This document shows, one piece after another, positions 19,837-64,000 of a DNA stretch of 64,000 bases. Positions within the stretch are counted from its first letter, which is position 1, and every line of letters begins with the position of its first letter. Source of the DNA: Escherichia coli (GTDB lineage: Bacteria > Pseudomonadota > Gammaproteobacteria > Enterobacterales > Enterobacteriaceae); NCBI RefSeq assembly GCF_013315695.1, contig NZ_CP054353.1; one strand, 5' to 3'. A program made the position numbers and the translations under genes. The notes under the pieces are model-generated. The model was given only the letters and a program-made list of their open reading frames with translations. It was not told the DNA's origin and ran no database searches.

Positions 19837-20790
19837 ATGAGTACACTTGAACCTGCTGCCCAGTCGAAACCGCCGGGCGGATTTAAGCTGTGGTTGTCGC
19901 AGCTGCAAATGAAGCATGGGCGCAAACTGGTGATTGCGCTGCCGTATATCTGGCTAATCCTGCTGTTTCTGCTGCCATTTCTGATTGTCTTTAAAATAAG
20001 CCTGGCGGAGATGGCGCGCGCTATTCCACCTTATACCGAACTGATGGAGTGGGCTGACGGGCAACTTTCCATCACTCTTAATCTCGGTAATTTTCTGCAA
20101 CTGACTGACGATCCGCTCTATTTCGATGCTTATCTCCAGTCGTTACAGGTGGCGGCGATTTCGACTATTTGCTGTTTACTGATCGGCTATCCGCTGGCGT
20201 GGGCGGTGGCGCACAGTAAGCCTTCGACCCGTAATATCTTATTACTACTGGTGATCCTGCCGTCGTGGACCTCGTTTCTGATTCGTGTCTACGCCTGGAT
20301 GGGAATATTAAAAAACAACGGTGTGCTGAATAATTTTCTGCTGTGGCTGGGGGTTATCGATCAACCGCTGACCATTCTACATACCAATCTGGCCGTTTAT
20401 ATCGGCATTGTTTACGCCTACGTGCCGTTTATGGTACTGCCGATTTATACCGCGTTGATTCGAATTGATTATTCACTGGTGGAAGCAGCACTGGATCTCG
20501 GTGCACGACCACTGAAAACGTTCTTTACTGTGATCGTGCCGCTGACTAAAGGTGGGATTATTGCCGGATCGATGCTGGTGTTTATCCCGGCTGTGGGCGA
20601 GTTTGTGATCCCTGAACTGCTCGGTGGCCCGGACAGCATCATGATCGGGCGCGTGCTGTGGCAGGAGTTCTTTAACAACCGCGACTGGCCGGTGGCCTCA
20701 GCGGTAGCGATCATCATGTTGCTGCTGCTAATTGTGCCGATAATGTGGTTCCACAAGCATCAGCAAAAAAGCGTGGGAGAACACGGATGA
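19837..20790 (+). CDS. potH: Putrescine ABC transporter permease PotH
   Basis: 317-aa multi-TMS ORF; synteny. Confidence 0.92.
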   Translation: MSTLEPAAQSKPPGGFKLWLSQLQMKHGRKLVIALPYIWLILLFLLPFLIVFKISLAEMARAIPPYTELMEWADGQLSITLNLGNFLQLTDDPLYFDAYLQSLQVAAISTICCLLIGYPLAWAVAHSKPSTRNILLLLVILPSWTSFLIRVYAWMGILKNNGVLNNFLLWLGVIDQPLTILHTNLAVYIGIVYAYVPFMVLPIYTALIRIDYSLVEAALDLGARPLKTFFTVIVPLTKGGIIAGSMLVFIPAVGEFVIPELLGGPDSIMIGRVLWQEFFNNRDWPVASAVAIIMLLLLIVPIMWFHKHQQKSVGEHG

Positions 20791-21632
20791 ATAATTTACC
20801 GGTAGTTCGTTCGCCCTGGCGGATTGTGATTTTGCTGCTGGGCTTCACCTTTCTCTACGCGCCAATGCTGATGCTGGTGATCTATTCATTCAACAGCTCG
20901 AAGCTGGTGACGGTGTGGGCCGGCTGGTCAACGCGCTGGTATGGCGAATTATTGCGCGATGACGCGATGATGAGTGCGGTTGGTTTAAGCCTGACAATTG
21001 CGGCCTGTGCGGCGACGGCGGCGGCGATCCTCGGGACTATTGCGGCGGTGGTGCTGGTGCGCTTTGGCAGGTTTCGCGGATCAAATGGCTTTGCCTTTAT
21101 GATCACCGCGCCGCTGGTGATGCCAGATGTCATCACGGGCTTGTCGCTGTTGTTGTTATTCGTCGCGCTTGCTCATGCCATTGGCTGGCCTGCGGACCGC
21201 GGTATGCTCACCATCTGGCTGGCGCATGTCACTTTCTGTACGGCTTATGTGGCGGTCGTTATTTCTTCAAGATTGCGGGAGCTGGACCGTTCCATTGAAG
21301 AAGCCGCGATGGATCTTGGTGCGACGCCACTGAAAGTGTTTTTCGTCATTACGCTACCGATGATCATGCCCGCGATCATTTCTGGCTGGTTACTGGCTTT
21401 TACTTTGTCGCTTGATGATCTGGTGATCGCCAGCTTTGTTTCCGGGCCGGGAGCCACCACGTTACCGATGCTGGTCTTTTCTAGCGTGCGGATGGGGGTG
21501 AATCCGGAAATCAACGCCCTGGCAACATTGATCCTCGGTGCGGTCGGAATTGTCGGATTTATCGCCTGGTATCTGATGGCGCGCGCAGATAAACAGCGGA
21601 TACGCGATATCCAGCGTGCAAGACGTGGCTGA
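20787..21632 (+). CDS. potI: Putrescine ABC transporter permease PotI
   Basis: 281-aa product from internal ATG (MNNLPVVRSPWRI...) overlapping the potH stop. Confidence 0.92.
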   Translation: MNNLPVVRSPWRIVILLLGFTFLYAPMLMLVIYSFNSSKLVTVWAGWSTRWYGELLRDDAMMSAVGLSLTIAACAATAAAILGTIAAVVLVRFGRFRGSNGFAFMITAPLVMPDVITGLSLLLLFVALAHAIGWPADRGMLTIWLAHVTFCTAYVAVVISSRLRELDRSIEEAAMDLGATPLKVFFVITLPMIMPAIISGWLLAFTLSLDDLVIASFVSGPGATTLPMLVFSSVRMGVNPEINALATLILGAVGIVGFIAWYLMARADKQRIRDIQRARRG

Positions 21633-52456: not shown

Positions 52457-53374
52457 ATGCCACTCTCAAAGGTCTGGGCAGGTTCACTGGTTTTGTTGGC
52501 AGCCGTGAGCCTGCCGCTGCACGCGGCTTCCCCAGTTAAAGTCGGTTCAAAAATCGATACCGAAGGCGCGCTGCTCGGCAATATCATTTTGCAGGTGCTG
52601 GAAAGCCACGGCGTACCAACGGTCAATAAAGTGCAACTTGGAACGACTCCTGTGGTGCGCGGGGCGATTACTTCCGGTGAACTGGATATCTATCCGGAAT
52701 ATACCGGCAATGGCGCGTTTTTCTTTAAAGATGAAAACGATGCGGCATGGAAAAATGCCGGGCAGGGCTACGAGAAAGTCAAAAAGCTCGATGCAGAGCA
52801 AAACAAGTTAATCTGGCTGACGCCCGCACCTGCGAATAACACCTGGACCATCGCCGTGCGTCAGGATGTGGCAGAGAAAAATAAACTCACTTCGCTTGCT
52901 GACCTGAGTCGTTACCTGAAAGAGGGCGGCACCTTCAAACTGGCTGCCTCAGCAGAGTTTATCGAACGCGCCGATGCGTTACCCGCGTTTGAAAAAGCCT
53001 ATGGCTTTAAGCTCGGTCAGGATCAGTTGCTGTCACTGGCTGGTGGCGATACGGCAGTGACGATCAAAGCCGCTGCTCAGCAAACCTCTGGCGTTAATGC
53101 CGCAATGGCTTACGGTACCGACGGTCCGGTCGCGGCGCTGGGGCTGCAAACCTTAAGCGATCCGCAAGGCGTGCAACCTATCTACGCACCTGCACCAGTG
53201 GTGCGTGAATCGGTGTTGAAGGAGTATCCGCAAATGGCACAGTGGCTACAGCCAGTCTTCGCCAGCCTCGATGCAAAAACATTGCAGCAACTGAATGCCA
53301 GCATTGCTGTGGAAGGACTGGATGCCAAAAAAGTGGCTGCCGACTACCTGAAACAAAAAGGGTGGACGAAGTAA
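52457..53374 (+). CDS. osmF: Glycine betaine/osmoprotectant ABC transporter substrate-binding protein OsmF (YehZ)
   Basis: 305-aa ORF with signal peptide; first gene of the yehZYXW operon. Confidence 0.9.
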   Translation: MPLSKVWAGSLVLLAAVSLPLHAASPVKVGSKIDTEGALLGNIILQVLESHGVPTVNKVQLGTTPVVRGAITSGELDIYPEYTGNGAFFFKDENDAAWKNAGQGYEKVKKLDAEQNKLIWLTPAPANNTWTIAVRQDVAEKNKLTSLADLSRYLKEGGTFKLAASAEFIERADALPAFEKAYGFKLGQDQLLSLAGGDTAVTIKAAAQQTSGVNAAMAYGTDGPVAALGLQTLSDPQGVQPIYAPAPVVRESVLKEYPQMAQWLQPVFASLDAKTLQQLNASIAVEGLDAKKVAADYLKQKGWTK

Positions 53375-56340: not shown

Positions 56341-57030
56341 TTAAATGCCGAGTGGGAAAATATCATGGCCTTGTTCCTGCCAACTGGTGAGTTGCTGCTG
56401 TTGGGCGGAGGTTCGATTTTCACCGCACCACACCAGCAATGTACGGCCTTCGAACAGTTCAGGGCGTAGTTGATTGAGCGAGTGGGCGAGGACATCAATG
56501 CGCCATCCTTGTTGACTGGCAATCCAGCCCTCCAGCCACAGACGGGTGGTATCCTGAATATTCCAGCCAACCACCAGCGCATCTTTACCCTGTTTTTTAC
56601 GTGCCGAAGCCAGACAAATGGCAATGTAGTTGATCAGTACGCCGTCGAGGATCGCCAGCAGCGCCTGGAGAGTCGGTTGTTGGCACTGAAGCCGTCGGCG
56701 CAGTGGAATGAACAGATGTGTGGTGAGTGTCTGGGCGGGGTAATCCTGACCGCGCTCTTTGATCCACGTTCGCAGGCTATGCAGATTGCCGCTTTGCAGG
56801 TAAGTCAGTAATGTTTCTTGCTGATCGCGCCAGCCGTTCTGCACATCAACATTTTCATTACTGAGCAGCATTTTTACTTTGCTGACCTGCACGCCATTGT
56901 CGATCCAGCGTTTGATCTCGCGGATCCGGTCAATATCGGCATCGTTGAACAGCCGATGACCGCCGTCTGTCCGTTGCGGTTTCAGCAATCCGTAACGCCT
57001 CTGCCACGCGCGTAACGTGACAGGGATTAA
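56341..57030 (-). pseudogene. mlrA: mlrA (yehV), MerR-family curli regulator, 5'-truncated by prophage integration
   Basis: Reading frame matches MlrA from about residue 15 (..[30 protein letters not shown]...) to the stop at 56341. Upstream of about 57030 the sequence no longer encodes the MlrA N-terminus (expected ..GEVALLCD) and an integrase gene follows. Confidence 0.8.
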
Positions 57031-57062
57031 GGGTAAACTAACTGATTTTACAAGTTTTTATT

Positions 57063-58349
57063 TTACCCCACTTTCTTATGGGGCATACATGGGACACTTT
57101 CAGATAGTCTTTTGTTAAGGAGTTCTATCTGTTCGTGATTGTTGTCTTTCATCCATGCTCCGTAAACATTGAATACCATTTGTGCGTTTGTGTGGCCCAT
57201 CTGGCTTGCGATAAAACTAGGATTAGCTCCAGCGGCAAGTGACCAGCATGCATAAGTATGCCTGGATTGGTACGATTTTCTGTGTCTCAGACCTGCGTGT
57301 TTTAAGATACTTGTCCATGACTCCCTGATGGAGTCAACCTTATAGTGCGGTCCGGAAAACTGCCGCTGTTTTATTACCTGAGGACTAAAAACAAAAGTGC
57401 ATTTATGCACAGTACTTCTCCCATATTCCCTCTGCTTTACCTCTACAGAATGTTGCTTTCCAAGCATGGTCATTTCCGCCTGACTTTTAAGAGCATCAAT
57501 AGCTGGTTGAACCAGATGAATTGTCCTTCCGGTGCCAGCATCGGTTTTTGGTGGAGTGAATTCGCCAAGTTTTGTATAATTCCTACGGATGGTTATAGTC
57601 CTTGCTTTAAGATCTATATCTTCCCATGCCAGCGATACCAGCTCCCCGTGACGAATACCCGTGTATACAGCGAGAATCCACAGGTTTTTTGTTTGTTGAT
57701 GACGGCAAGCCTCAATAAAACGAATAAATTCGTCACGGGTGAGAGGATCTGGTTTTACCTTGGACTTTTTTAAGGGAGCCAGACCGTTAAATGGGTTTCC
57801 TGAGGTATAACCATTATCTGTTGCAAATTGAAACATTCCAGCTATGGTTGTCATATAGTAGTTTACCGTGACCACTGAGCGCCCTTTTATGGAAGAAGTC
57901 TTTCCATTAGAAAGTTTTTGGTAACCGGTCAACAAATCTCTCCTTACGAAAAGTAAATCCTCTTTTGTTATGGATGAAACCAGTTTTTTTTCACCTAACA
58001 TTGGTAACATGTTTTTAATTACTGACTGGTAACGGTTAAGTGCATTCGCACAAATCTCAATTTTCTTAAGGTCCAACCATTTTTCCGAAAGTGCCTTAAC
58101 GGTTATCTCTCTTTTTCCCAGACCAAAGTGTTTCAGGTTAGGGGAATTAGGGAACTGCGCGGAGTAGTCGAAACTCCCCATTCTGATTGCAAAACAAACG
58201 GAAGTGCGAAGTTCACCAGCGATCTTCCGGTTTTTGGCTGTGTCAGGAACACCGAGGTTTTCTCTGACACGTTTGCCATTATAGTGAAACCATATACGGA
58301 GTGATCCTCCATGGTTTTCAACGCCTGTCGGGTATGATGCGTTACTCAT
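57063..58349 (-). CDS. int: Phage tyrosine integrase
   Basis: 428-aa ORF with C-terminal tyrosine-recombinase catalytic region (..RHTYACWSLAAGANPSFIASQMGHTNAQMVFNVYGAWM..); 3' end about 30 bp from the att junction. Confidence 0.9.
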   Translation of the reverse strand: MSNASYPTGVENHGGSLRIWFHYNGKRVRENLGVPDTAKNRKIAGELRTSVCFAIRMGSFDYSAQFPNSPNLKHFGLGKREITVKALSEKWLDLKKIEICANALNRYQSVIKNMLPMLGEKKLVSSITKEDLLFVRRDLLTGYQKLSNGKTSSIKGRSVVTVNYYMTTIAGMFQFATDNGYTSGNPFNGLAPLKKSKVKPDPLTRDEFIRFIEACRHQQTKNLWILAVYTGIRHGELVSLAWEDIDLKARTITIRRNYTKLGEFTPPKTDAGTGRTIHLVQPAIDALKSQAEMTMLGKQHSVEVKQREYGRSTVHKCTFVFSPQVIKQRQFSGPHYKVDSIRESWTSILKHAGLRHRKSYQSRHTYACWSLAAGANPSFIASQMGHTNAQMVFNVYGAWMKDNNHEQIELLNKRLSESVPCMPHKKVG

Positions 58350-58382
58350 TAAACCTCCCAGACGTCCAGGAGCATTAACAGG

Positions 58383-58637
58383 TTAACCGGAACTTGCATT
58401 TTTGGCACCTGGTTGTTTCTGGTTTTCGATCCATCGCATAATTTCTTCGATGTTGTACAGGCATTCACTGTAGTGCCTCGGATCACCTTCTACAGCGTAA
58501 TGGCGGTATTCTTTTCCCTGCATCCATGACTTTCTTCTTGCCCGCTCAATGGTGCCAGGCTTTAGCCCTGTTGATGCAATGAGGACTCTCTCCGTACACC
58601 ATTTGCTGGGGGTTATCTGATAGATGATTGTCTGCAT
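58383..58637 (-). CDS. xis: Excisionase-like DNA-binding protein
   Basis: 84-aa ORF immediately upstream of int on the same strand; basic winged-helix-like segment (LKPGTIERARRKSW). Confidence 0.65.
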   Translation of the reverse strand: MQTIIYQITPSKWCTERVLIASTGLKPGTIERARRKSWMQGKEYRHYAVEGDPRHYSECLYNIEEIMRWIENQKQPGAKNASSG

Positions 58638-58655
58638 GCCAACCTCATAAAATTT

Positions 58656-58790
58656 TCATCCACGGCAGTGGCACCACACGTCAAACATTCGCTTCACAAC
58701 TTCACGACAGTAGAAGCCGTCAACATCTCGCGTCAGGTCATAGCGATTGCCGTAACGCTGGTGGACCCATCGTTCAAATGCTTTATTCAT
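58656..58790 (-). CDS. Small Cys-containing protein (44 aa), hypothetical
   Basis: Manual translation MNKAFERWVHQRYGNRYDLTRDVDGFYCREVVKRMFDVWCHCRG; fits the tight gene packing between xis and the next ORF; below ORF-track cutoff. Confidence 0.3.
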   Translation of the reverse strand: MNKAFERWVHQRYGNRYDLTRDVDGFYCREVVKRMFDVWCHCRG

Positions 58791-58793
58791 TCT

Positions 58794-59072
58794 TTACTTC
58801 CTTTTTATGGCTCGTAATTTTTTCAGGTGCTTTTCCTGCTCAGTGTCCGCGAGAATTTTGCGGTACTCCTGGTGGTCAATATGTTCGAACAGGCAGTTTA
58901 ACTCACCAATGCGTACCCGCCCGGATCGTCCGTCCATCCGTCGAAAGAACACTGAGTGCTCAGTGATGCGAGTAATCACCACGGGGTATCCGGCTCTGTC
59001 CGTGTATATCTGACCGCGTTGAATCAAAGCGAACATGTGGTTATCCCCATCGACAAATCGAGAACACAACAA
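58794..59072 (-). CDS. Phage hypothetical protein
   Basis: 92-aa ORF in the co-directional early operon. Confidence 0.45.
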   Translation of the reverse strand: MLCSRFVDGDNHMFALIQRGQIYTDRAGYPVVITRITEHSVFFRRMDGRSGRVRIGELNCLFEHIDHQEYRKILADTEQEKHLKKLRAIKRK

Positions 59073-59120
59073 ACGCTGCTGCGAATACCACCCCCAGAGT
59101 TACGATTGCATCAGGCCAGC

Positions 59121-59639
59121 TCATTGATTCACCTCCTGCCTGTCGTCCGGCATTCGCTCACTACAGCTTATCCAACCATCCGGAGTTACCGGAGAGCTGG
59201 TTGACGCTTCCGGGATTTTCCGAAAATTATTGGTTGACGAATCTTTATTTTCCCGAAAGTTTCCGGACTGAAGCATGGCTTCGCGGCAATCGTTCCAGCC
59301 TGTAGCGTATGCAGCCGCTTTGCTGCTGCCTTCAACTGGCGCATCCTGCCAATACATTTCTTCCGGCACTACCGGCGCTGGAGGGGCGGCGTAAATGCCC
59401 TCTATCACTAAATGTTTGCGCTCAAAATCATCTGGCTCTCGATGATATACGTAACTCCAATCACCAAGGTTATCATTGCGCCTGCAACGGAAACCTATCG
59501 GCTCTGCTTCCAGCGATGCCAGAGCAATTCGTGCCAGTTCTTCCGCTTCTTCTGCTGGCAGTACAACGTTGCTACCCGGTCCGTATGTTTCGCGCCACTG
59601 CTTGATTGTCAGCAGTCGCTCTTTGGTAATAGTGATCAT
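59121..59639 (-). CDS. Phage hypothetical protein
   Basis: 172-aa ORF; its start overlaps the stop of the upstream gene by 4 nt. Confidence 0.5.
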   Translation of the reverse strand: MITITKERLLTIKQWRETYGPGSNVVLPAEEAEELARIALASLEAEPIGFRCRRNDNLGDWSYVYHREPDDFERKHLVIEGIYAAPPAPVVPEEMYWQDAPVEGSSKAAAYATGWNDCREAMLQSGNFRENKDSSTNNFRKIPEASTSSPVTPDGWISCSERMPDDRQEVNQ

Positions 59640-60151
59640 GCCGCGTTTCCTTCTTTCTTATTAACAATTACACCGTCATATATTTCATTAAGGTGCCCTC
59701 TCAACTCCATGCGCCTTAATGCAGATAACATGTAATCGCATTCAACCTGCTTATTCCCGGTAAATGGCTTATCGTCAGGATTACCCCAACAGCAATTACC
59801 CCTGGGCCATCCATGTACTTTCCGTACTCTTCCGTTAACAACGTGAAGTAATCCCCAGCCGGGAGGTAAATCCTCAACTGAAATAATTTCCGGCTCACTA
59901 ATAAAGAATCGCCAGTCGCCCATGCCAAGTGAGGGATTTTTACGGAAACGCTTTTTTCTATCTGCCAACAAGTCAGCACGAGAACACTTCGCCTCTATCA
60001 GGCATGATGCTGAATTTCTGAATCCCATAGCATCTGGCTGTTCTCCGGTACTGGTTACAGCAACAAAGCGGTCATGAAAGCAAACCTTGAACCCGTTGCG
60101 CTTAAGGAACTTGTACGCAATCTGACAGAGTTCGTGGTGTGTTAACGCCAT
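59636..60151 (-). CDS. Phage protein with PD-(D/E)XK nuclease-like motif
   Basis: 171-aa ORF containing ..GEQPDAMGF..(11 aa)..IEAKCS.., a PD-x(n)-E-x-K pattern; assignment is by motif only. Confidence 0.4.
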   Translation of the reverse strand: MALTHHELCQIAYKFLKRNGFKVCFHDRFVAVTSTGEQPDAMGFRNSASCLIEAKCSRADLLADRKKRFRKNPSLGMGDWRFFISEPEIISVEDLPPGWGLLHVVNGRVRKVHGWPRGNCCWGNPDDKPFTGNKQVECDYMLSALRRMELRGHLNEIYDGVIVNKKEGNAA

Positions 60152-60152
60152 A

Positions 60153-60752
60153 TCACTCTCCTTTGATGCGAATGTCAGCGACGCGTAATGCGTGTTCTAG
60201 GTCAATCAGGTAAAGCCAACTGCCATTTTCTTTAGGTATCATGACTTGTCGCTCATCTGCATTTATGGGGTGTCCATATCGAAGGTCGTAGCGAGTCGGT
60301 AATTGAACTTCCCGCGCTTCCAGTTCAGCAATACGCTTGCACCCATCAGAGATAACTCCCTCATAATACTCGCGCTGCTCGTTGAGTTTTGATTTTGTCT
60401 CCTCAAGCTCAACGCGCAGCTTCCCTACCGTTAGCGCAATATCCTCGTTCTCCTGGTCGCGGCGTTTGATGTATTGCTGGTTTCTTTCCTGTTCATCCAG
60501 CAGTGCCAGCACGGTAGCCGGGTTAGCCTCTGCTATGAATTCAGCGTTTGCATAAGCCTGAGCATCTGTTTCAACCAGGCAGTTAACGTGACATTCTGCA
60601 ATTACGCCACCGGGTTCTCCTTTCCATTTTTGACAAACAAAAACTCCTGTTAAATTGCCGTGTTGGTTAACAGATGTATGCCCTACGATGTAGCTTCCTT
60701 TAGTTGCTTTCTCTGCCTTTTCACGCAGTACCTGATAGTTAATGTTGCTCAC
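60153..60752 (-). CDS. Phage hypothetical protein with coiled-coil region
   Basis: 199-aa ORF; start overlaps the upstream stop; central charged heptad-like region (LRVELEETKSKLNEQREYYE). Confidence 0.5.
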   Translation of the reverse strand: MSNINYQVLREKAEKATKGSYIVGHTSVNQHGNLTGVFVCQKWKGEPGGVIAECHVNCLVETDAQAYANAEFIAEANPATVLALLDEQERNQQYIKRRDQENEDIALTVGKLRVELEETKSKLNEQREYYEGVISDGCKRIAELEAREVQLPTRYDLRYGHPINADERQVMIPKENGSWLYLIDLEHALRVADIRIKGE

Positions 60753-60988
60753 TGGTTGCCTCCTTTACGGATCTGCGCTGCGATGCACGAAAAAAAAGAC
60801 TTTCGCGTATGACTGTTAAGAGCTGGCGCGAACGCCGCGTTAAGAACGGCGGCATCACAGCCGTCATCGATATAGAGCGCAATTTTTTTCTCCAGGCGTG
60901 CTTTGGCTTCCTGCAACTGCATATCCCGGCACGCACGCGGGATATACTCAGCAATTTGAGCGATAGATTTTTCGTTCTGTTTAAACAT
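60749..60988 (-). CDS. Phage hypothetical protein
   Basis: 79-aa ORF chosen over the overlapping 120-aa alternative (60739..61101) because it keeps the 4-8 nt start/stop overlap chain of the operon. Confidence 0.4.
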   Translation of the reverse strand: MFKQNEKSIAQIAEYIPRACRDMQLQEAKARLEKKIALYIDDGCDAAVLNAAFAPALNSHTRKSFFSCIAAQIRKGGNQ

Positions 60989-61184
60989 GCTTCACCTCGA
61001 TAGGCTTGATGGTATCGATCAGCAGTCGGCGGCGAGTATTTTCTGCAAAGTGGCGGCGTCCGGTTTCTTTGTGGTAAAACTCGTTTTTTCCGACGACCCA
61101 CATCCGCTTTGTCTGGTGCAGTTTTTTTACCTGCGGACCGTCTCGGGTGATAACAATTCCTGTATGAGTTTTTATCACGCTCAT
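60981..61184 (-). CDS. Phage hypothetical protein
   Basis: 67-aa basic ORF within the overlap chain. Confidence 0.4.
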   Translation of the reverse strand: MSVIKTHTGIVITRDGPQVKKLHQTKRMWVVGKNEFYHKETGRRHFAENTRRRLLIDTIKPIEVKHV

Positions 61185-61543
61185 TTTTTATTCTTCGGTG
61201 CTTTCGGCATTACTGCCCAGTGAGTGATATTGACGTTTTCAAGGTCCCCGACCTGAAATGTCCACAGCCATTCTCCGGTTTCTTTTTGTCCCCAGGTGTA
61301 CCAGAGAGAACGCCAGCCAATTAGCCAGCCTTCTCCGTTAGCATCAAATAACAGAACACTTTCATTTGCTGGTGGCAGTTCAGCTGACACTGGTATTATT
61401 TTGTTTTCCAGTGCCGCACATTTAGCTTCAAGCGCGTCGAATTTACGTAACAGGTACTCAGCATTTGTTTCATTCACTTTCAGATCTCGCGGTACACATT
61501 TCCCGCGAAGAAACCCTTCCATTTCGAAAACATTCATGCGCAT
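61181..61543 (-). CDS. Phage protein, DUF551-like
   Basis: 120-aa ORF with Trp-rich C-terminal segment (GWLIGWRSLWYTWGQKETGEWLW) resembling DUF551 phage proteins as recalled. Confidence 0.45.
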   Translation of the reverse strand: MRMNVFEMEGFLRGKCVPRDLKVNETNAEYLLRKFDALEAKCAALENKIIPVSAELPPANESVLLFDANGEGWLIGWRSLWYTWGQKETGEWLWTFQVGDLENVNITHWAVMPKAPKNKK

Positions 61544-62139
61544 TTGCGTAACTCCGATAAATCGTTAAAACGTTCCATAAACATCCCGTAGGCATGACCC
61601 GGTGCCAGTGGAATCACGTTGAACATCTCTGTTGCCGGGATGCCTTCCAGTACTGGCCAGAAAGAGCCATCATCAAGCCCGAGATCGCGGCGTTCGGTTG
61701 CCAGCATGATGAGATCGGCATATTTCACAGGCGTGCGCATAACCGGGGGTAACCCGTATTTCTCACGGATTACGGCGTCTATTTTTTCTTCCATCCGTTT
61801 ATAGTCAGGAAGAAGGCGTTTCAGTGGAGCGGGAATATCCTGGCAATACGCTTCTGTTGCATCATGCATTAACGCTTCAAAAGCAAATTCCTGCGGCACC
61901 AGCTGGCTGCAAAGCACCGCATGCTGGGCGACACTGTAGAAGTGTGAAAGATGTCCTGCAAAGCGACAGATATTTGAAAGGGAAACCGCGATATCGTTAA
62001 TCACGATGTCGTCTTTATTTATCTTGTCATAATAAAAATGCTTCCCGGAAAAAGTTTTAATAAATGACATTTCGTTCTCCACTTTATATGCGCTGCACCG
62101 CTCTGAATTTTGATTGCAGCAATCCAGCCCATTTGACAT
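61534..62139 (-). CDS. HD-domain phosphohydrolase (YfbR-like 5'-deoxynucleotidase family)
   Basis: 201-aa ORF with H...HD metal-binding signature (..AGHLSHFYSVAQHAVL...LMHDATEAY..). Confidence 0.55.
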   Translation of the reverse strand: MSNGLDCCNQNSERCSAYKVENEMSFIKTFSGKHFYYDKINKDDIVINDIAVSLSNICRFAGHLSHFYSVAQHAVLCSQLVPQEFAFEALMHDATEAYCQDIPAPLKRLLPDYKRMEEKIDAVIREKYGLPPVMRTPVKYADLIMLATERRDLGLDDGSFWPVLEGIPATEMFNVIPLAPGHAYGMFMERFNDLSELRKCA

Positions 62140-62160
62140 GGGATGATTGCTGCAATTTTT

Positions 62161-63078
62161 TTAAGTTGTTGGATTTTGGCTTTTATCTTCTTTGTAAGAA
62201 AGAAGGTCACACATCAAATTAACTACCTTGCTGAATTGGAAAAGGTCAGCGCCAGTCTGATGACGCCACTGGAATGCTTTATCATCTTCATCATTAAATG
62301 TCTGAGATTGAGTATTGATGCGCGAAAAATGGAAATTTTCGGTAAGAATGAAGGTCACACCGCAACCGGATAACTCCATTTTATCAGCAGTGAAACTACT
62401 ACTAAGGCTATCGGCCAGTTCGCTTTGAATTGACTCATGCTCAGCTGAGTAGCGAATAATTTCCTTTTGATCTGCGTAGCGTGATAGCTGAATATAATTT
62501 CCGACAGTGAATCCTTCAAATGCATTGGCTGCACCATTGATGTAGTTATTCAGGCGTGTAGTCAGTCCATTCTTGATATCACTGATGTTGATTGTTTCTG
62601 TTTTCACTGAACCGACAACCTTAATCAGCATTGCGCATACCATACCGGCTATTATTTTATTGGTTGTGTTGATTACCAATAATTTCTCATCAGTGCTGTA
62701 CAATGCAAGAATCAGAGTAGACTTAACAAATGCCTGTTTGCATAGATCTACTCGTACGTTATCAATAATGGCCAGTCGTTCGGCACGCTTTAATTTATTC
62801 CCGGACATATTTTCGGTTGTTTGGATTCGAGAATTAGCTTCTTTCATGACGACATGTCGGGGAATTATTTTCTGATCATGACGGATTACCATTGCGTACC
62901 CACCAGATATCGGAGTTACCAGTTCACCAGTGACAGGATTCTCTACAAAAGAGGACCGTGAAAATTCTGTTTCCCCGATTTCAGAATAAGGGAGTTCGAG
63001 AAGATGACCTTCAATAGCCTGTATACTAGGTAATGTTGCTCGGTACACAATTGCGTTACGAAATTTTGGTAATTTCAT
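62161..63078 (-). CDS. RdgC-like recombination-associated protein
   Basis: About 305 aa from ATG at 63078 (MKLPKFRNAIVYRATLP...) with aggaaa SD; N-terminal pattern and length resemble bacterial RdgC (MLWFKNLMVYRL...). The ORF-track 5' extension to 63279 is likely untranslated. Confidence 0.5.
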   Translation of the reverse strand: MKLPKFRNAIVYRATLPSIQAIEGHLLELPYSEIGETEFSRSSFVENPVTGELVTPISGGYAMVIRHDQKIIPRHVVMKEANSRIQTTENMSGNKLKRAERLAIIDNVRVDLCKQAFVKSTLILALYSTDEKLLVINTTNKIIAGMVCAMLIKVVGSVKTETINISDIKNGLTTRLNNYINGAANAFEGFTVGNYIQLSRYADQKEIIRYSAEHESIQSELADSLSSSFTADKMELSGCGVTFILTENFHFSRINTQSQTFNDEDDKAFQWRHQTGADLFQFSKVVNLMCDLLSYKEDKSQNPTT

Positions 63079-63765
63079 TCTATTTTCCTCTGCACAATGT
63101 ATTAGTTTCTCCACAAAACAGAGAAGAACACCTGCGGTGGCAGCCGCCCGGATGGATTGGGTTATGAGCCCGTCGTCCGGTGATGCTCTTCTCTGTTTTG
63201 TAAAAAGAGCGGTACCAGCCGGAAGCAAGTGTACAAACTGGTACCGCCAAAGCAGTGGCTGTTGTGGTGGGGTTGTCACTCAGGCGTATGGTCAACCTGA
63301 CAACCCGGTGTCCTCAACGGGGAAAGAGTAACCCCGCCATACTTACCGCCGCGCCATTTCGCGGATTACCACAACGCTGAGAGCACTTAGCCAGTTACGG
63401 CACCACACTTTGTCGCGGTTCCATAAATGCCCTCATCGTTGCACCCTGGTCTCTTCCCAGGCGTCAAACCGAATCGCCACGCTGGTTAGGCGTCTTATCA
63501 GCATCCTCATTGACTTGCACATTCCGGCTATCTGGTTTGTTTGCCCGAGCAAGGAGTGGATTGTCCCCTTTAACGTCCCCAGACCGCTAACGACGCATGT
63601 GCCATACGCCGTGTTACAACCAAATTTTGTTAGTACCTTGTTTGTAGGTCTGGAGAGAAAGATAAAATGAAGTTGCGCATTATGCAAGTGTTTTATTGCG
63701 AGATAAGCAATTTGGTGGGTAATGAAAAGCCACCTTCTGGTGGCTAATTGATGTTGAGGTAGGGG

Positions 63766-64000
63766 GTTAATTGTGTCGCTTAAGGGTCTGTGACTGACTG
63801 ATTAAGACCTTTCCAAAGACCATAAACCGGTGTTCGTTTTCGCTGGTAATTCCCCATTCGCGGTAAATCTGATTATCAGAAATTACCAGCAGTTTATCAG
63901 GTATCATTTGCAGTCGTTTGACGTAAATTTTATCATCAAAACCAAATACATATATACCATCCCCATCAAACTGATTGATACTGATATCAACGAAGATGAG
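63766..64000 (-). CDS. Partial CDS (C-terminal 78 codons; start lies beyond right window edge): S24 LexA/CI-like peptidase domain, candidate phage repressor
   Basis: Manual translation ..LIFVDISINQFDGDGIYVFGFDDKIYVKRLQMIPDKLLVISDNQIYREWGITSENEHRFMVFGKVLISQSQTLKRHN*, resembling the C-terminal autocleavage domain of CI/LexA-type repressors. Confidence 0.4.

Follow-up and report, generated by a model that had tools for sequence, protein, structure and literature searches.

Which gene does the right edge of this Escherichia coli sequence cut through, and what does its product control? The window, by which we mean the whole stretch of 64,000 nucleotides that was analysed, ends inside a reading frame on the minus strand. 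The earlier note, made from the sequence itself, had placed the 3' part of a gene with an S24 (LexA/CI-like) peptidase domain at 63766-64000 on the strand of the early operon. It had left two readings: a prophage immunity repressor sitting unusually close to int, with a short early-left operon, or an SOS-responsive regulator of an accessory module. The gene fragment is real and only its boundary needs correction, by one base, as the stop codon begins at 63767 and not at 63766. Read as its reverse complement, window 63767-64000 encodes LIFVDISINQFDGDGIYVFGFDDKIYVKRLQMIPDKLLVISDNQIYREWGITSENEHRFMVFGKVLISQSQTLKRHN followed by a stop, i.e. 77 sense codons plus the stop codon, and the translation runs through GDGIYVFGFDDKIYVKRLQMIPDKLLVISDN to a terminal KRHN and a TAA. 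The frame is open up to the window edge, and stops abound in both other frames. Against Pfam Peptidase_S24 the 77-residue fragment gives an E-value of 2.4e-9 (37.4 bits, with a cut-off of 23.3; profile positions 54-115 of 116), which is far beyond chance. The strand is also as described before: the fragment shares the minus strand with int (57063-58349), xis and the genes between them.

For the sequence past the window edge, E. coli MSB1_4I (NZ_LR898874.1, locus L001) was used as a proxy. Its sequence is 100% identical to window 56900-64000 (7.1 kb) save for an IS5-family insertion in its int. To the right of the insertion, window positions equal L001 positions plus 49999, and window 63767-64000 is identical to L001 13768-14001. 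The N-terminal two thirds of the protein, with the helix-turn-helix, the cleavage site and Ser144, lie outside the window and are inferred from this genome, identical over the adjacent 7.1 kb. The full reading frame in the proxy encodes 230 residues, of which the window holds residues 154-230 and the stop codon (63767-63769). In this extension, residues 3-64 form a helix-turn-helix of the XRE/Cro-CI type (Pfam HTH_26, HTH_31 and HTH_3 at about 1e-11), and the profile of the N-terminal part matches the DNA-binding domains of the 434 repressor (E = 4.9e-5) and SinR. Residues 104-218 match Peptidase_S24 with an E-value of 6e-19 (68.3 bits; profile positions 6-115 of 116). The earlier note had proposed to extend the window rightward for an N-terminal helix-turn-helix, and had held that its claim would fall if the full protein lacked that domain and the Ser/Lys dyad; the helix-turn-helix is present, and both Ser144 and Lys181 were found. 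A UmuD-type mutagenesis protein was considered and ruled out, given the 230-residue length with an N-terminal helix-turn-helix and the absence of a umuC-like neighbour.

Catalytic residues, probable cleavage site and fold

The codon for Lys181 (in VKRL) lies within the window at 63917-63919, and that for Ser144 (in GDSM) would be at 64028-64030, 28-30 nt past the edge, as read from MSB1_4I. The two residues align with Ser60 and Lys97 of UmuD in solved structures, including the K97A chain 8gmt_B. Among 27 homologues with identities of 68-97%, A99, G100, S144 and K181 are all invariant. An exhaustive search brought together 8,446 related clusters at 50% identity, and a diverse alignment was made of 79 homologues, which are 26-46% identical to the query except for eight closer family members among them. 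Across the 79 sequences K181 is retained in every one, S144 in 75 and G100 in 73. Position 99 is occupied by Ala in 57 sequences and by Cys and Met in nine each; Ala and Cys are the known residues at the equivalent position of LexA/CI and UmuD. The (near-)invariance of the dyad and of the Ala-Gly motif across the family implies selection for cleavage.

The cleavage site itself had two candidates. The SASAG motif, which contains A99-G100, is invariant among close homologues. A profile alignment to lambda CI, of low probability, sets the lambda Ala-Gly opposite G106-G107 and not A99-G100. The positions of G106-G107 vary across the 79-sequence alignment, and A99-G100 is likely the bond that would be cut. 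From this Ala-Gly to the catalytic Ser there are 44 residues, compared with 34-37 in LexA and lambda CI.

The fold was modelled with AlphaFold. The model from the diverse alignment has a mean pLDDT of 81, with values of about 89-97 at residues 121-220 and low values at 96-113. It superseded a model made from only 27 close homologues, which had a pLDDT of 50 and left the C-terminal domain unmodelled. When the model was searched against the PDB with Foldseek, the best matches were the 186 repressor, the lambda repressor, LexA and UmuD' (probability 1.00). The target TM values for the C-terminal domains were 0.7-0.8, with 0.7-0.75 for the LexA C-terminal domain and 0.8 for UmuD'. A profile comparison with LexA and lambda CI sequences aligned Ser and Lys correctly at low probability, and a single-sequence search of the PDB sequences reached neither LexA nor lambda CI. 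The protein has the same catalytic domain and dyad as LexA and UmuD of MEROPS family S24, but LexA carries a winged-helix DNA-binding domain and UmuD carries none, whereas the present protein has an XRE-type helix-turn-helix, is phage-borne and is paired with cro.

The cI slot, its putative control sites and its relatives

In MSB1_4I, a cro-like gene (86 residues, HTH_3) lies on the opposite strand, 97 bp from the repressor gene. It is followed by ymfL (Phage_CP76, CII family), two Rha genes, an O-like replication gene, PerC, Dam, a protein with a LexA DNA-binding domain, RusA, KilA-N, DUF968 and Q. The divergent cro-like gene that the earlier note had suggested looking for is thus in place, with a cII-like gene behind it. 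Eight further loci of the family, from Salmonella, Citrobacter, Lonsdalea, Kosakonia and metagenomes, were compared. Seven of them have a divergent helix-turn-helix gene across a 97-bp gap (in the eighth, the contig ends just upstream of the repressor gene), and the CII gene was seen in five of these seven. From the start codon of int (58349) to the stop codon of the repressor gene (63767) there are 5.4 kb. The earlier note had thought this distance unusually short. In phages with this cI or a close variant of it, int and cI are separated by 2.6 kb (SfII), 4.6 kb (Stx2a_WGPS2) or about 7 kb (mEp460), so 5.4 kb is typical of this phage group, which is without the N, cIII, gam, bet and exo block of lambda.

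Operators had also been put forward as something to look for, and repeated operator-like sites occur on both sides of the repressor gene. Downstream of it, a pattern search found two sites of the form TTGC-N7-GCAA directly past the terminator and 23 bp apart, OL-b (TTGCGAGATAAGCAA, 63696-63710) and OL-a (TTGCGCATTATGCAA, 63673-63687, overlapping the putative PL). OL-b is 89% identical over 19 nt to a site in the intergenic region between cI and cro (repeat family D5), and OL-a was assigned to repeat family D12. The cI-cro gap has one exact copy of the pattern and another with a single mismatch, and between the two lies a perfect 15-bp palindrome, CGCAAAATATTTGCG. This middle OR element does not fit TTGC-N7-GCAA, and the operator model is incomplete on that account. 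In L001 there are six exact occurrences of the pattern against 1.3 expected, a number reached in 0 of 100 shuffles. In comparison with SfII, the outer tetranucleotides of every operator-like site are kept and the centres differ. In the Klebsiella phage Kp4874-4, with a repressor of 70.6% identity, three such sites separate cI from cro, and two more follow cI with a spacing of 22-23 bp.

The terminator scan reported a hairpin at L001 13729-13746, which corresponds to window 63728-63745 (minus strand) and lies 22 nt after the repressor stop codon. Its stem, AGCCACC-AGAA-GGTGGCT, is followed by TTTTCATT, so that the whole terminator-like element spans 63723-63745. The annotation of phage SfII has a putative rho-independent terminator at the same position, and the stem is conserved between the two; the hairpin is likely the end of the cI transcript. 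On the same strand, a putative early-left promoter was read from the sequence at 63659-63687, with a -35 hexamer TTGCAT (63687-63682), a 17-nt spacer and a -10 hexamer TATCTT (63664-63659). It matches the consensus at 7 of 12 positions, which is below the threshold of the promoter scan, and the scan did not report it. Both hexamers are conserved in SfII, and the spacer varies.

The interval between PL and rdgC (63079-63655, minus strand) has roughly 560 nt with no annotated gene. The leader RNA folds unusually well (z = -5.3, equalled by none of 100 shuffles). One of its hairpins, at 63113-63201, has 25-nt arms, and upstream of rdgC there is a terminator-like hairpin, GCGGTACCAG paired with CTGGTACCGC and then TCTTTTT, at 63209-63247. 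No N-like gene is present, an Rfam scan of the region gave no match, and a search for an antitermination RNA like put of HK022 found no similarity to the HK022 region. The small open reading frames in the leader matched no functional family. A plus-strand frame at 63137-63328 matches phrog_3651 with an E-value of 4.9e-38, over the C-terminal half of the profile only, and an upstream extension of the rdgC frame (63105-63210, minus strand) matches phrog_33599 at 4e-14; both are families of unknown function. These matches suggest that the hairpin-rich element is a conserved element that has been inconsistently annotated as small genes in phage genomes.

The part of the exchangeable immunity module that lies in the window, with OL/PL, the terminator and cI, covers 63633-64000. 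Relatives that have the rdgC arm with other repressors match the window up to 63631-63632, where the match ends, and this puts the left boundary of the module at about 63632. In phages with the same cI and a different left arm, matching resumes near cI in two or three pieces and reaches the window edge. Prophages with the same rdgC/yfdR arm have other pairs of an S24 repressor and cro in the same slot. The swap of repressors at about 63632 is classical immunity-module mosaicism.

The annotated cI proteins of PhiR40_1, PhiR55_1 and PhiR47_1 share 99.6% identity with the repressor, as does the repressor gene product of phiSTEC1575-Stx2k, whose annotation says no more than helix-turn-helix regulator. 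For the 'prophage repressor' of mEp460 the identity is 99.1%, for the CI of Stx2a phages WGPS2 and 1447 it is 97.4%, for the cI of the Shigella phage SfII 95.7%, for sb38 of ST64B 83.5% and for the cI of HK022 43%. Throughout the set from PhiR40_1 to SfII the identity spans all 230 residues, cI lies between the early-left arm and cro/ymfL, and the terminator and the operator-like sites are held in common. The left arm, which is yfdQ/yfdP in most of these phages and rdgC here, is different, as are the integration site and the cargo. The diversity of CI in Stx phages has been catalogued (PMC8951638). In the searchable literature we found no biochemical studies of this repressor or of those in the set, and a literature search on the inducibility of these particular phages gave nothing specific.

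The ST64B repressor sb38 carries the same embedded LexA box that is described below, in a phage with another host and another cargo. Peroxide and nitric-oxide stress raise the lytic genes of ST64B and the transcripts that lie downstream of its CI, and with DNA-damaging stress there is strong expression of an ncRNA and of two genes beyond cI in the downstream direction (PMC7067206). This stress expression is compatible with SOS-linked control and does not specifically point to it. With CI of lambda, 434 and HK022 the present repressor shares the arrangement of helix-turn-helix, linker and S24 C-terminal domain, the Ser/Lys dyad, a motif of the Ala-Gly type, a divergent cro and multiple operators at OR and OL, which here are operator-like sequences. 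Unlike in the classical lambdoid repressors, the sites are 15-bp TTGC-N7-GCAA sequences, only two were seen at OL, and the interval from cI to PL has neither an N gene nor rexAB.

The insertion site of the prophage is the 5' end of mlrA (yehV; window 56341-57062). Most E. coli genomes cease to match near window 57030; the reading frame that precedes IPVTLRAWQRR comes from the phage and is closed by a stop. The mlrA/int junction is matched across in 457 of 5,426 complete genomes. Prophage insertion in mlrA impairs curli and biofilm formation (PMC3874044). Next to the junction, int (57063-58349; 428 residues) is intact in the window and is split by the IS5-family element ISKpn26 in MSB1_4I (L001 5865-8350), so that the window comes from a close relative of MSB1_4I and not from that assembly. 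Further on, the early-left genes for DUF551, a small hypothetical protein and an ead/Ea22-like protein (59121-60752; L001 9131-10753) are flagged by RefSeq, in the identical sequence, as partial or frameshifted, a sign of some decay, or of mosaic scars, in the non-essential left arm.

The proposed repressor switch and competing explanations

With the helix-turn-helix, cro, operator-like sites and the Ser/Lys dyad in place, the evidence bears out the first reading of the earlier note, in which the prophage immunity repressor goes with a short early-left operon. It is highly probable that the fragment at the right edge of the window makes up the last third of a CI-type immunity repressor gene, carried by a lambdoid prophage that is related to SfII, mEp460 and PhiR40_1 and inserted in the 5' end of mlrA. 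As a finding this is ordinary, and the gene is already annotated in public records. Its value is chiefly one of annotation: the right end of the window is the immunity region of an mlrA-inserted lambdoid prophage, and OL/PL and the cI terminator are thereby located within the window. In the switch that we propose, CI dimers would bind the OR sites, past the window, and the two OL sites within it. Binding would shut off PR, with cro, cII/ymfL, Rha, the replication genes and Q, as well as PL, with rdgC, yfdR and onward to xis and int. Upon DNA damage, RecA filaments would stimulate Ser144/Lys181 to cut the A99-G100 bond, and the separation of the DNA-binding domain from the dimerisation domain would lead to prophage induction.

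How does this switch compare with other explanations of the same gene? The second reading of the earlier note, that the S24 protein is an SOS-responsive regulator of an accessory (moron or defence) module and not the main immunity repressor, had some ground, as S24 helix-turn-helix regulators govern accessory modules elsewhere and the window by itself has just the C-terminal domain. It was rejected, and we consider it extremely improbable. The gene fills the cI slot of a complete layout of cI, cro, cII, replication genes and Q, with a divergent cro and the cII-like ymfL; operator-like repeats lie on both sides of it, at the starts of both early operons; it is the annotated cI in isolated phages; and within 12 kb rightward there is no second cI candidate. 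An inert remnant of a decaying prophage, controlling nothing, could account for the several early-left genes that PGAP calls partial or frameshifted in the identical MSB1_4I prophage, and for the int split there by IS5. Yet in the window int is intact with 428 residues, the MSB1_4I proxy has intact genes for cI, cro, cII, replication and Q, and isolated phages with named propagation hosts carry the same protein at 98-99.6% identity. That the gene is inert is therefore very unlikely.

A further explanation accepts the immunity repressor and changes the way in which it is inactivated, which would then be mainly by a LexA-controlled antirepressor, Rha or KilA-N, as in the Gifsy prophages or coliphage 186. 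Gifsy-type repressors are not known to be cleavable through RecA. Unlike them, the present family has an S24 domain, a Ser/Lys dyad and an Ala-Gly motif that are invariant or nearly so. The prophage does encode two Rha-family proteins and one KilA-N protein. The intergenic region directly before the KilA-N gene contains a good LexA box, TACTGTATTTATGAACAGTG, and a further LexA box lies within cI itself. The KilA-N upstream box, however, is missing in SfII and PhiR40_1, two phages with the same cI. In Gifsy prophages, antirepressors under repression by LexA have been established (PMC3121763, as summarised in PMC7067206). On balance an antirepressor as the main route is unlikely here, and CI self-cleavage is the inactivation that we favour. 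The Rha and KilA-N genes together with the LexA boxes in the prophage mean that induction may not depend on self-cleavage alone.

Two observations were made in the region of the KilA-N gene. About 5.6 kb past the window, between the Dam methylase gene and RusA, a gene at L001 19565-19891 (plus strand) encodes a 108-residue protein made up of a complete LexA DNA-binding domain (PF01726, E = 2.9e-19), with no S24 domain. It is common in phages of the SfV, SfII, Stx2c and cdtI types, and its product is presumably a non-cleavable binder of SOS boxes. The LexA box upstream of KilA-N lies at L001 20329-20348 (plus strand), in a 163-bp gap before the KilA-N-domain gene (20446-21261), and may mark an antirepressor-like gene under LexA control. 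In the SfII and PhiR40_1 loci no site of at least 12 bits was found besides the box embedded in cI, and the gap between RusA and the next gene is about 20 bp.

A near-consensus LexA box within the repressor gene

When LexA boxes were scanned for, TACTGTTTTTACATACAGTA came up at L001 14232-14251; on the coding strand it reads TACTGTATGTAAAAACAGTA. In window coordinates the site would be at 64231-64250, about 230 nt past the right edge. It occupies codons 70-77 of cI, in what is otherwise a hypervariable linker, and matches the consensus at 17 of 20 positions. The box differs by a single base from the umuDC operator, with which the SfII version is identical. The arrangement CTGT-N8-(A/C)CAG is at exactly the same position of the gene in all 14 family loci examined, down to a protein identity of 68%; besides L001, it lies at L002 7210, L003 8210, L006 1710, L008 6408, L009 8640, L010 229 and L011-L017 1410. 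L010 is from Salmonella and has a repressor of 83% identity.

Is the box kept at the level of DNA or merely as a consequence of the protein sequence? Among 11 aligned diverged genes, 57 columns combine an invariant amino acid with a choice of four or more codons. A single codon is used in all 11 genes in only four of the 57 columns, and three of these four, T71 (ACT), V72 (GTA) and S76 (AGT), spell the box. Residue 75 varies in a way that has a bearing on the same question. It is N, Y, D or H in 116 of 120 cluster representatives, each of which can be spelled as NAC, and in the nine such genes that have been sequenced the codon is always NAC. Of the other four representatives, two have Thr and two Ser, and in the single sequenced example of either kind the codon produces the natural CCAG variant. 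These patterns are strong evidence that a LexA-type site within cI has been under selection as DNA.

The box was also scored with a rough weight matrix made from SOS boxes, the training boxes of which score 13-27.5 bits. The embedded box scores 22-26.6 bits in every family member. With the same matrix, nothing of at least 12 bits was found in three outgroup repressor loci or two other immunity types. The HK022 locus has only a 13.3-bit site, outside the repressor gene, so that a LexA box in the linker-coding region, present here, was not found at the repressor gene of HK022. Across the 64-kb window only a 13.2-bit site at 52680 was found.

Two actions of such an operator are conceivable: LexA may repress an internal promoter, which during SOS would give a 5'-truncated cI transcript or a fragment with the C-terminal domain only, or LexA may act as a roadblock that tunes the level of CI. 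A candidate internal sense promoter can be drawn with a -35 of TTTACC, 17 nt and a -10 of TACTGT, the left half-site serving as the -10; it is a weak match. After the box, no robust conserved restart or alternative-frame ORF was found, an in-frame GTG or ATG with a Shine-Dalgarno-like motif being present in 8 of 11 genes. Inspection of the sequences showed no conservation of an antisense promoter at the box. A connection to the phage gene for the LexA DNA-binding domain, as one specific to box-bearing cI, was considered and rejected: that gene occurs with many other cI types. It was not detected in the ST64B records, and it is absent from box-bearing Klebsiella phages. No account of a LexA box lying within a cI gene turned up in the searchable literature. 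We suggest, tentatively and at somewhat less than even confidence, that the selection-maintained LexA operator of cI may be a genuine and not yet described regulatory input, a second SOS input beside the self-cleavage of CI.

The repressor family is widespread in prophages of Escherichia, Shigella, Salmonella, Klebsiella and Citrobacter, including the Stx2a phages of O157:H7 and ST64B. If the embedded box is functional, a direct input from LexA would change the understanding of the induction thresholds of these phages and, with them, of toxin release.
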